Positions 15,327-19,442 of a stretch of DNA of 64,000 bases are shown here, one piece after another (the first letter of the stretch is position 1; each line of letters opens with the position of its first letter). The DNA comes from Candidatus Hydrogenedentota bacterium (GTDB lineage: Bacteria > Hydrogenedentota > Hydrogenedentia > Hydrogenedentales > JAEUWI01), in NCBI GenBank assembly GCA_034669905.1, contig JAXMOL010000028.1:28244-92243 (forward strand). The letters are read 5' to 3'. The notes beneath the pieces were generated by a model. It worked only from the letters and a program-made list of their open reading frames with translations, made no database searches and was not told the origin of the DNA. Both the position numbers and the translations under genes were made by a program.

Positions 15327-15354
15327 GGGGACCCGGCCAATTGACCGGGTCCCC
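15327..15354. terminator. Hairpin between convergent genes, probable terminator
   Basis: GGGGACCCGG / CCGGGTCCCC perfect 10-bp stem. There is no strong U-tract. Confidence 0.55.
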
Positions 15355-15406
15355 GAGAATCTATCTTGAACGCCATCAGGGCTATGCCCAGGCGGAATAC
15401 CTGTCC

Positions 15407-15604
15407 CTACTCCAGACCGGTGTACGTAATGGTGCTCGTCTCCAAAGACATTTTCTTTTCGGTTCGGGCCGCCTCGCGCACCTTCTGCACCGCAGGAAGC
15501 AAAAGGCCAATGCCTCCCTTTACCTGCTCCATCTCCTCGTCGGTCATTTCGATTTCATCGGACTTCGTGGCTTCGTTCAATTCGTTTACCTTGATGTCTT
15601 TCAT
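15407..15604 (-). CDS. Small peptide: double-glycine leader plus pilin/DUF1559-like core
   Basis: EMTDEEMEQVKGG|IGLLLPAVQKVREAAR. GGAGGA RBS just upstream, own promoter region and a downstream hairpin. Confidence 0.85.
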   Translation of the reverse strand: MKDIKVNELNEATKSDEIEMTDEEMEQVKGGIGLLLPAVQKVREAARTEKKMSLETSTITYTGLE

Positions 15605-15707
15605 CGCTCATTCCTCCAGTTTCTGATGCGAAACTTGTTCTATTTTCCCTGCAACCCTGGGCCGAGTCGCTGTCGTGCCCTGCGCACCGTGACGCATGGG
15701 AAGTTAG

Positions 15708-15723
15708 AGCGACTATCATGCCA
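15708..15723 (-). promoter_or_regulatory. Putative sigma54 -24/-12 promoter of the small peptide gene
   Basis: Minus strand reads TGGCATGATAGTCGCT, i.e. GG-N10-GC spacing, about 100 nt upstream of the ATG. Confidence 0.65.
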
Positions 15724-17023: not shown

Positions 17024-18247
17024 TCAGTCACTACGGGCGCCATACACGAGTACCCCGTCGCGCCCCGATTCCGCCAGGTAACCCCGTGCGGCAAAAACAT
17101 AGCTTTCAGGACCCCTTACCGACACGACGGTATTAAACATGTACAAGGAGGTGGGCCCCCGTCGTTTCCATTCCCGGGCACCTGCGTCGTCGAGTTTTAT
17201 CGCCACGGCCCGACTGCGCCCATAGCCCGCCCCTTCCGACCCGGAAAGGAGGTATCCCCCATCGGCCGTCGGCACCATGCGGTCATAGGAGGCCGTAAGG
17301 GTGTCGCCATCAACCGGCACCCGCGCCCGCTCGACTCCCTGCTGGTCGACGGTAATAAGGATGGACTCCTCAAACACGTCGCCTTCTTTTCCCAGCACGA
17401 AGAACTGACCATCCTCCCGCTCCCGAAAATCAGAGGCGGAAATACGGGCCGTGTTTTCAACAAATCGGGTGGGCCGGGCGAGGATGGTATGCCACCGAAC
17501 CACCCCCTCGGGAGTCAATCGGGTCAGACTGGGTTCGGATTGCTGGGTGTTATAGACGCCGGGCCCATCCACTCCAAGGACCATCAAATCACCATTACGG
17601 TATTCCCGTATCCGAATCGCATCTTCAAATTGTGCCGTGCCGTAGGTTTGCGTCCACAGCACGTTGCCCGCACCATCCAGTTTCGCGAGGTAGCGATCGG
17701 AAACACCTTCCCCAAAGGATTCCGTGAAGCCCGCCAGCACATAGCCCCCATCCCGGGTCGCCACCACCGATCGGGCACCGTCGAAGTAGCGTCCACCAAT
17801 GCGGGCGCTCCATTCCTCGGTGCCATCCGCCGCGGCCTTCATAATATACATATCGGTTCGCCCTGCGGAATCCGACCGCGATAACCCCGCAAGCACGAAT
17901 CCCCCATCGCCCGACACAATCAATCCGCCCCCTTCTCCTGGCGCCGATTCGGCATAGGCCCGGGACCACCGCACCGTTCCCTGGCCATCCAGGCGATAGA
18001 CGACAGGACTGGTGTTCTCCGAATTTTCGCCCACGCCCGTGCCCAACACCAGCACGTCCCCGTTGCTCCCGACGGCCATATCGGCCACGTCCATCATACC
18101 GGGACTGCTGATTCCTCCCATCCAGTCAAGGGTGAGTGAAGGGAGCAAGGCACCGGGACAGCCCACCAACCCCATCGCAGCAAGCACCCCTATCAGGCGA
18201 CGGCCGTAGCCGTGAAACAAGACCTTCTGCACACGATTAATTGCCAT
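17024..18247 (-). CDS. Putative lipoprotein with beta-propeller-like repeats
   Basis: Lipobox LVGC and repeated DGGYVLAG / KLDGAGNVLWTQTYG units. Confidence 0.75.
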   Translation of the reverse strand: MAINRVQKVLFHGYGRRLIGVLAAMGLVGCPGALLPSLTLDWMGGISSPGMMDVADMAVGSNGDVLVLGTGVGENSENTSPVVYRLDGQGTVRWSRAYAESAPGEGGGLIVSGDGGFVLAGLSRSDSAGRTDMYIMKAAADGTEEWSARIGGRYFDGARSVVATRDGGYVLAGFTESFGEGVSDRYLAKLDGAGNVLWTQTYGTAQFEDAIRIREYRNGDLMVLGVDGPGVYNTQQSEPSLTRLTPEGVVRWHTILARPTRFVENTARISASDFREREDGQFFVLGKEGDVFEESILITVDQQGVERARVPVDGDTLTASYDRMVPTADGGYLLSGSEGAGYGRSRAVAIKLDDAGAREWKRRGPTSLYMFNTVVSVRGPESYVFAARGYLAESGRDGVLVYGARSD

Positions 18248-19442
18248 CAGCGCTTACCTTTACCAGCAGGGCGGCGACGCCGGCGCCCGTTGCGGTCTCC
18301 CTGCTGAAATCGACACTCCTCCCCACCACCAGACCGGTGCCATCGTCGTTGGCGATGATTCCATAGCCGGATGCAACGGACTTGGGGGAATAAACCCGAC
18401 TCCACAGCAATTCCCCGGCCCCATCCACCTTGGTTACAAACGCATAGCTACAGAAGGAATCGTAGGCCGCCCCCGTAAGCAGCACGTTTCCCTCCGGATC
18501 CATCGCGCCTCCACTCGGATAGAAATACCGATAGTACGGCTCGGGAGCAATCAATTTCTCCCACATCAGGCCACCCTGGGCATCTACCGCCACCACATAG
18601 TTCACATCCTCTGAGCTACCCGTGAGGAGATAACCGCCTGTCGGGAGGATGGAGAGGGACGCCGCAATGTTACTGCGCGAATACCCAAAGGTTTCCTCCC
18701 ATTGTACGACGCCATCTTCATCCGTCTTAACGAGATAAAAATCGGTCACATTGTGGCCCATGGATTCGGAATCACCCAGCAGGATAAAGCCACCATCGTC
18801 GGTCATTGCCAAATCCGCCGCTATCTCATTGCCCGACCCGCCATAGGTCGCGGACCACTGCACATTGCCCGCGCTATCCAATCGGTGGAGCTGCATATCC
18901 GTGCCCCCGGACCCCGTGGAATCCGTCGTACCCAACACCATATAGCCGTCCGGCAGCACAACCATATCGGCCGCCACGTCCTTCCCCGTGCCACCAAATC
19001 GTTTTTCCCACTGCAAGGAACCCCGGGCCGATGTTGCCATGAGGAGGTAGTCCGTTTGCGCGCCATCGCGTGTGGCACCCACGTTGCCCAGTATCAGAAA
19101 GTTCTCCCCCACCTCCGCCACACGATGGCCCCGGGAAAGACCGGAAGCGGATTCAATGGAAGCCGTCCAGCGTTGGTTTCCCTGGTCATCGGTGCGCACA
19201 AGCAGAACATCGCCCAAGAAATTATAGCCGTCCGAAACGATGCCAACCAGCAACAGATCGTCATTGCGGAGCCTTGTAATGGAGAAGGCCTCGCTCGCCC
19301 GTTCCTGATGGGTATATTCGTGCTGAGAGACCGGCGTGTCGGGATTGGGATCGCAGCCATCGCGAATAATACATCCCGAGAGTGCACCGAACCCCGTGAG
19401 CACAGCCGCCAATCCAAGAAGTGTGCGCCCTGCGATGCCCAT
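18237..19442 (-). CDS. Putative lipoprotein with beta-propeller-like repeats (paralog of the downstream gene)
   Basis: Lipobox LSGC and repeated DGGFILLG / KTDEDGVVQWEETFG units. Confidence 0.75.
   Translation of the reverse strand: MGIAGRTLLGLAAVLTGFGALSGCIIRDGCDPNPDTPVSQHEYTHQERASEAFSITRLRNDDLLLVGIVSDGYNFLGDVLLVRTDDQGNQRWTASIESASGLSRGHRVAEVGENFLILGNVGATRDGAQTDYLLMATSARGSLQWEKRFGGTGKDVAADMVVLPDGYMVLGTTDSTGSGGTDMQLHRLDSAGNVQWSATYGGSGNEIAADLAMTDDGGFILLGDSESMGHNVTDFYLVKTDEDGVVQWEETFGYSRSNIAASLSILPTGGYLLTGSSEDVNYVVAVDAQGGLMWEKLIAPEPYYRYFYPSGGAMDPEGNVLLTGAAYDSFCSYAFVTKVDGAGELLWSRVYSPKSVASGYGIIANDDGTGLVVGRSVDFSRETATGAGVAALLVKVSADGN

Follow-up and report, generated by a model that had tools for sequence, protein, structure and literature searches.

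A double-glycine peptide family whose cores match short motifs of foreign proteins: candidate decoys or elicitors

A 65-amino-acid open reading frame in the window analysed here (64,000 nucleotides of a Candidatus Hydrogenedentota genome, on contig C28) belongs to a conserved family of double-glycine (GG) precursor peptides, whose predicted cores resemble strings of short motifs taken from unrelated foreign proteins. In the reading proposed here, the precursor gene likely has a sigma-54-type promoter of its own, and its product is probably cleaved behind Gly-Gly and carried out of the cell, in trans, by the sole C39-peptidase ABC pump found in the genome together with an HlyD protein. The 34-residue peptide would be released outside, where its borrowed non-self motifs could serve as a decoy or elicitor for proteins recognising them on other bacteria. 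We give this full reading a probability of about 0.5. Promoter use, cleavage and export are very probable given the signals and genes described below, whereas the least certain step, with slightly less than even odds in our view, is that the motifs imitate their source proteins and so address a sensor or binding protein that belongs to neighbours, predators or hosts. The export step is of a known kind, and the cargo principle matches none found in the literature (main texts in open-access PMC and bioRxiv).

Table 1 Features of the peptide locus in the window.
Feature	Position	Strand	Remarks
Precursor peptide gene, 65 aa	15407..15604	-	ATG at 15604, TAG at 15407-15409; 58 homologues; syntenic in kin
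Double-glycine leader, 31 aa, hydrophobic -4/-7/-12	15512..15604	-	From sequence; TIGR03949/TIGR01847 sub-threshold
Word 1, IGLLLPAVQKVREAAR	15464..15511	-	Matches the helix after the membrane segment of planctomycete DUF1559 prepilins; absent from host pilins
Word 2, TITYTGLE, C-terminal motif	15410..15433	-	Shared with repeat units of giant planctomycete proteins; moderate support, from a single source family
Ribosome-binding site GGAGGA	15612..15617	-	13-8 nt before ATG
Sigma-54-type -24/-12 box, GG-N10-GC	15709..15723	-	10/11 consensus positions; 119 nt before ATG
12-bp hairpin	15327..15354	.	Between peptide gene and convergent hydrolase gene; z -3.4; likely terminator

The reading frame is a genuine gene with a ribosome-binding site, a sigma-54-type box and a likely terminator hairpin (Table 1). 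It translates exactly as quoted in the initial annotation, to which we add that it reads on the minus strand; the plus-strand translation of 15407-15604 was discarded as a gene. A homologue search returned 58 proteins at E ≤ 0.01 among 91 candidates (35-114 aa), and 57 of the 58 keep GG or GA within six residues before LLPA[VI], that is, both motifs together, which argues that the frame is more than a chance occurrence. The locus is 97% identical over 473 columns at one syntenic site (L007), and at the corresponding position two further genomes of the genus (L016, L031) have a single related peptide gene or four of them, with differing tails. Two alpha/beta hydrolases and beta-propeller-like lipoproteins are encoded beside the gene; two of the lipoprotein genes lie in tandem at 17024-19442 (minus strand) in the window, and four occur in L031 beside the four-peptide array.

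The leader carries Val-4, Met-7 and Met-12 before Gly-Gly, which supports the double-glycine leader named in the initial annotation, and 108 of 112 family leaders obey the same hydrophobic -4/-7/-12 rule, which is given for C39 substrates in the relevant part of PMC10885120. In a scan with curated leader HMMs the peptide stayed below every cut-off (TIGR03949, 18.6 bits against 21.5; TIGR01847, 13.6 against 15.7; TIGR03798 of the Nif11 type, 14.9 against 32.3). TIGR01847, PF07963 and PF07596 had been put forward for scoring in the initial annotation; the first thus fell short of its threshold, and the other two gave no match at E ≤ 1. This agrees with its view that the prepilin site and transmembrane part are missing, and neither a prepilin cleavage/N-methylation motif nor the hydrophobic helix is present in the peptide sequence. 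The predicted mature peptide has the expected 34 residues and no Cys, with seven Ser/Thr. For the peptide, a search of the ESM Atlas returned only one unnamed match (0.76).

The family occurs in Hydrogenedentota, Alphaproteobacteria and Acidobacteriota. A DNA pattern detected 12 loci in species-representative genomes, nine GG peptides and three long proteins, from Sphingopyxis, Parasphingorhabdus, Parasphingopyxis, an alphaproteobacterium, Pyrinomonadaceae, Vicinamibacteria and Hydrogenedentota; in metagenomes it detected 21 loci, 14 of them GG peptides by leader profile, and in viral contigs none. Carriers include the cultured strains Sphingopyxis jiangsuensis XHP0097 and Parasphingopyxis marina GrpM-11. 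A profile search reached 11,760 proteins at E ≤ 0.001; among the best 150 of these, 67 of the 140 new ones were short and 50 of those 67 fit a strict leader pattern, and many of the remaining matches are probably ordinary DUF1559 proteins. Comparison of the family profile with PDB sequences gave nothing useful. Literature searches of main texts in open-access PMC and bioRxiv turned up no account of the family, in line with the earlier suggestion of an undescribed system; supplementary tables of small proteins or precursors may list members. One member is annotated as a DUF1559/H-X9-DG protein in RefSeq, and the family accounts for a class of mis-annotations in which tiny proteins are labelled by "DUF1559", "H-X9-DG" or Hcp matches. 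Two further loci (L038, L052) encode short peptides with the same helix word, another leader ending and no usual hydrophobic spacing.

The peptide gene is covered, at about 94-98% identity, by contigs from four RNA libraries belonging to two studies, all selected by means of this gene. Three extend over 15371-15634, 15461-15690 and 15363-15554, and a fourth continues into the adjacent hydrolase. In three of the libraries, whose selection did not involve contig C6 (described below), one contig each spans just the peptide pair on C6, and in a run of unknown kind a contig reaches upstream at C6 and covers most of the pump. These are assembled contigs of relatives, which carry no strand, ends or level and whose uncovered stretches are not read as silence; those lying over just the peptide genes offer a weak hint of expression.

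The export machinery is encoded elsewhere in the genome. A six-frame scan located a paralogue of the peptide on contig C6, where it stands with a second GG peptide behind an 11/11 sigma-54 box, in a cluster that also encodes a sigma-54 activator, short at its N-terminus and lacking any sensor-domain match, an HlyD protein and a pump that combines a C39 domain and an ABC module with two cNMP-binding domains. The cluster further encodes a TIGR04500-like (PpiC-like) protein, which at E 6e-13 stays under the cut-off, as well as a Cys-rich protein and two additional small Gly-Gly peptides. The C39 domain of the pump scores 130 bits with PF03412, and its catalytic Cys, His and Asp are visible. PF03412 matched only on C6 and C24 in this genome, the latter a 297-aa frame, and nowhere on C28. 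The observation that no transporter lies near the peptide gene therefore holds for C39 pumps, and the description of the gene as an orphan holds by position only, as family paralogues, pump and HlyD all stand on C6. Processing in trans, one of the options in the initial annotation, is what this arrangement points to, and the genome search for C39-ABC, HlyD and paralogous precursors that it proposed led to the same contig.

Co-occurrence points the same way. Among 31 kin genomes, ten carry the peptide (three further weak matches were dropped as long ORFs), and a pump orthologue is present in nine of these ten versus none of the other 21, the one lacking it being a 60% complete genome; the kin genomes are not independent of one another, and all counts among them are to be read accordingly. 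All five non-kin carriers have a C39 pump, sister peptides adjoin HlyD and the pump at five loci (L004, L079, L080, L081, L084), and the alphaproteobacterial loci combine HlyD and the C39 pump with a second, peptidase-less ABC protein. After removal of 11 duplicate loci, a sigma-54 box of at least 10/11 precedes 10 of 31 peptide arrays compared to 2.5% of control windows; such strong boxes are confined to Hydrogenedentota-type loci, some of them near-identical, and 21 of the 31 regions score below 10/11. The RpoN-box motif is present in the host genome. Just upstream of the Cys-rich gene lies another kind of small Gly-Gly peptide, also conserved (L001:7140-7400; also L028, L032 and L050).

The core sets the peptide apart. 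Its helix word had been attributed to DUF1559 proteins, and we indeed found LLPAVQKVREA in 19 of the 81 genomes drawn from the class that contains Alienimonas chondri, with 25-93 copies in 16 of the 19; all five such loci opened were prepilin-type, and IGL preceded the motif in four. Phylum-wide draws of Planctomycetota gave 1/201 and 0/61 genomes, and 1/8 in the family of that single match: the helix word is lineage-restricted in this phylum. In the host itself, 45 of 48 DUF1559-type pilins read LLPALARAREAA and none reads LLPAVQKVREAA, and no full-length DUF1559 protein was found in five alphaproteobacterial carriers, some with incomplete assemblies, the one match being a peptide. Both results make the proposed role as a modulator of the host's own pili or as a filament subunit unlikely. 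Separately, about 45 DUF1559-type prepilin genes of the host are almost invariant over their first 45 residues. An Hcp gene was likewise not found in the five alphaproteobacterial carriers, some incomplete. The host, by contrast, carries one Hcp gene, within a type VI secretion cluster (L087, C9:33000-52999), and in this genome words of the Hcp type therefore do not count as strictly non-self. For the C-terminal word, the pattern T[IV][TSN]YTGLE ends 12 fetched peptides, one from Sandarakinorhabdus, and in 2 of 201 Planctomycetota genomes it has seven in-frame copies within the repeat units of proteins longer than 1008 aa, against none for the reversed pattern and two out-of-context matches; a search of five genomes gave one chance-like match. 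Support for this source is moderate, since the source proteins form a single family, unnamed in Pfam, and the motif was sought there with that source already in mind.

The initial idea of a pilin mimic fits the helix word and is too narrow for the rest. Family tails and sister peptides are strings of recurring short words in mixed order, with matched sources that include DUF1559 pseudopilins, Hcp, gp19/eCIS tubes, DUF4157 and surface repeats. An HMM built from 25 real Hcp proteins matched 22 of 56 sister cores at 4 bits or more (0.10 in shuffles) and 12 of 110 tails (0.04 in shuffles), over segments at about 5-20, 16-33, 48-69, 99-115 and 116-149 of Hcp. Across 114 peptides, Pfam and NCBIfam profiles at E ≤ 0.3 yielded PF07596 13 times, TIGR04294 14 times and single matches to Hcp, Vgr, autotransporter repeat, FG-GAP and dockerin; most of these single matches lie below cut-off, as expected for 10-20 residues, and some DUF1559 motifs of other family members score above it. 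At E ≤ 1, the 56 sisters gave gp19 three times and the eCIS core domain twice. At least one of eleven listed words, a list drawn up after seeing the data, was present in 67 of 114 tails compared to 0.11 in shuffles, and none in 47. Long proteins whose N-termini resemble signal peptides contain the same words, with as many as nine copies of the helix word. Among 14 long proteins scanned, two giants hold pieces matching gp19, the VgrG OB domain, the eCIS core and CIS tube, along with pieces of EF-Tu domain 3 (E 0.011) and HU (E 1e-6). More broadly, several giant or RTX-like secreted proteins are studded with borrowed words (P0060, P0064, P0068 and P0073, of 2472-5355 aa; P0061-P0071; L003; L009), EF-Tu, HU, VgrG and tail-tube pieces included.

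As judged from codon positions, the words are conserved as protein and not as DNA. In 34 sequences the majority base reaches 0.59 at third positions versus 0.97 at second positions, and two tandem 10-residue Hcp-type words within one C6 peptide differ by seven synonymous and no non-synonymous changes. Over the eight residues after LLLPA (46 sequences), pS is 0.71 and pN 0.137, the latter biased low as many loci were retrieved by the motif itself; leader pN is 0.43. A mobile repeat at the DNA level was ruled out, as third codon positions vary freely.

The system shares much with known ones. Like class II bacteriocins and ComC-type pheromones, as portrayed in the relevant part of PMC10885120, it has GG leaders with hydrophobic -4/-7/-12 positions, a C39-ABC pump with HlyD, and a single leader type on multiple precursors whose cores vary. 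In contrast to these, the cores here are motif strings matching unrelated foreign proteins, and the core is more conserved than the leader (pN 0.137 versus 0.43, with the low bias just mentioned). Unlike for class II bacteriocins, no immunity-like neighbour gene was recognised among the ORFs scanned. The two-cNMP pump, HlyD, PpiC-like gene and dense precursor arrays resemble cyanobacterial group I/II bacteriocin clusters, for which an excerpt of PMC3140520 lists a long-type C39 transporter, HlyD and SurA/rotamase. Here, however, the loci are non-cyanobacterial and add a sigma-54 activator and the Cys-rich protein with its RRE-like domain, and the cores hold borrowed motifs, whereas the same excerpt of PMC3140520 describes very little conservation among cyanobacterial cores. 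Reuse of pieces of unrelated proteins in RiPP precursors is seen in NHLP/Nif11 peptides (passages in PMC10885120 and PMC3140520), and the set of HlyD, C39 pump and second ABC protein at the alphaproteobacterial loci is a further likeness, but there the leader is enzyme-derived; here the borrowing concerns the core, which takes numerous short pieces from a wide range of sources, and the leader has 31 residues with no long Nif11 or nitrile-hydratase-like part. With DUF1559 (PF07596)/H-X9-DG (TIGR04294) prepilin-like proteins the peptide shares an identical 15-16-residue helix motif, and other members share further DUF1559 motifs, yet it lacks prepilin site, membrane segment and globular domain, would take another export route, and has 65 aa as against about 300-400 aa.

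Something must bind the words, since motifs of foreign proteins stay near-invariant in organisms without those proteins. Their occurrence in mixed order, across phyla and export routes, fits best with a binding partner that recognises the source proteins. We prefer a sensor to an assembly target, as the source proteins of the words differ in fold and compartment, the words stand in any order, and up to nine repeats in long secreted proteins cannot rebuild the source fold. Our best guess is a decoy or elicitor for motif-reading sensors, with assembly poisoning, self-signalling and modification tagging ranked lower. A bolder extension, tentative and on balance not the likelier outcome, is a recombining dictionary of epitopes shared across phyla and copied from the best-conserved motifs in other microbes' injection tubes, pili, surface repeats and abundant proteins; displayed on exported peptides and long secreted proteins, these epitopes would trigger, jam or mislead motif-reading sensors. 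If so, this would imply a widespread pattern-recognition system for extracellular bacterial peptides, whose ligand list is readable from genes. The export route is ordinary and the cargo unusual, and the words of such a dictionary would be ready-made baits for finding their reader.

The Cys-rich protein suggests another reading, in which the precursor would found a new RiPP class, modified in trans by this protein (and perhaps the PpiC-like one) with the words as modification or scaffold motifs; we consider this unlikely, although several observations lend it substance. The protein has 285 homologues, lies at L001:7568-8707 on C6 and L036:8612-9838 on C3, directly upstream of another GG peptide in the latter case, and is usually encoded just upstream of a sigma-54 activator without sensor domain. 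It was detected in exactly the ten peptide-positive genomes of the 31 kin. Its structural model reaches a pLDDT of 89.6 with a 107-sequence alignment (36 from single sequence), and the C-terminal domain (277-363) aligns with the RREs of TigE (Z 8.3, 81 residues, rmsd 2.8), MibB (7.5), MccB (7.3) and PbtF (7.0); these scores are middling, yet RRE-containing proteins fill most top rows. A TbiB1 match has a probability of 0.96 but an E-value of 0.16. The TIGR04500-like protein of the cluster can be counted on the same side (TIGR04500 is listed beside graspetide loci in a section of PMC8939145), and so can a deiminase-like gene that adjoins GG peptides with Gly-Ile-Arg repeats (L001:5446-6800, L004:4906-7148, L080:10566-12391). 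This pairing occurs in Hydrogenedentota and Sphingomonadales and possibly marks an arginine-modifying RiPP; the assignment is an Atlas lead only, with PF04371 in 10% of members, BLASTP between two of the deiminase-like proteins found no link, and PDB sequences gave nothing useful.

However, the words share no modifiable residue, the N-terminal part of the Cys-rich protein matched no family or fold, and the whole protein matched no NCBIfam family. Of five non-kin carriers, the acidobacterial one has the Cys-rich protein, and it was not found in the four alphaproteobacterial ones, which carry the same words, so modification cannot be what preserves the words everywhere. Modification or leader sensing by this protein is plausible in the Hydrogenedentota-type lineage, where the family would be a candidate new peptide-modifying enzyme or leader sensor, and modification and mimicry could coexist.

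The peptide might instead be a pheromone-like self-signal read by the producer's own receptor, its motifs being convenient ligands captured in the past, which we regard as quite improbable. GG-leader/C39 export does serve quorum peptides such as ComC (per the relevant part of PMC10885120). The cluster has its own sigma-54 activator lacking a sensor-domain match, with shared promoter boxes, and large PAS/receiver kinases adjoin some loci; no receptor family, however, recurs across all loci. Self-signals usually diverge between lineages, whereas these words are near-invariant over three phyla and identical to foreign proteins. Still more doubtful is an assembly poison that would cap or jam the filaments of competitors, be they DUF1559 pseudopili or tubes of Hcp or gp19, by mimicking the interfaces between subunits. 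Most words do trace to subunits that build tubes or pili, and their versions are not the producer's own, but T6SS and eCIS tubes assemble inside the producing cell, where an exported peptide would hardly reach them, the EF-Tu, HU, FG-GAP, dockerin and autotransporter-repeat words do not fit, and words of different machines are mixed in one 34-mer. Finally, a degraded DUF1559 fragment, chance ORF or assembly artefact, which the very short frame and the lack of any curated family above cut-off might suggest, is extremely improbable given the conserved family, synteny, purifying selection (the low-biased pN of 0.137), promoter, ribosome-binding site, terminator, occurrence in cultured strains and mismatch of the helix motif with the host's pilins.

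Beyond the peptides on C6 and C28, the host genome encodes five more GG peptides with the first-strand word of Hcp (C38:80858-81335, C47:63318-63747, C3:177535-177777); two of these arrays lie at contig ends, and the one on C47 has a sigma-54-type box.
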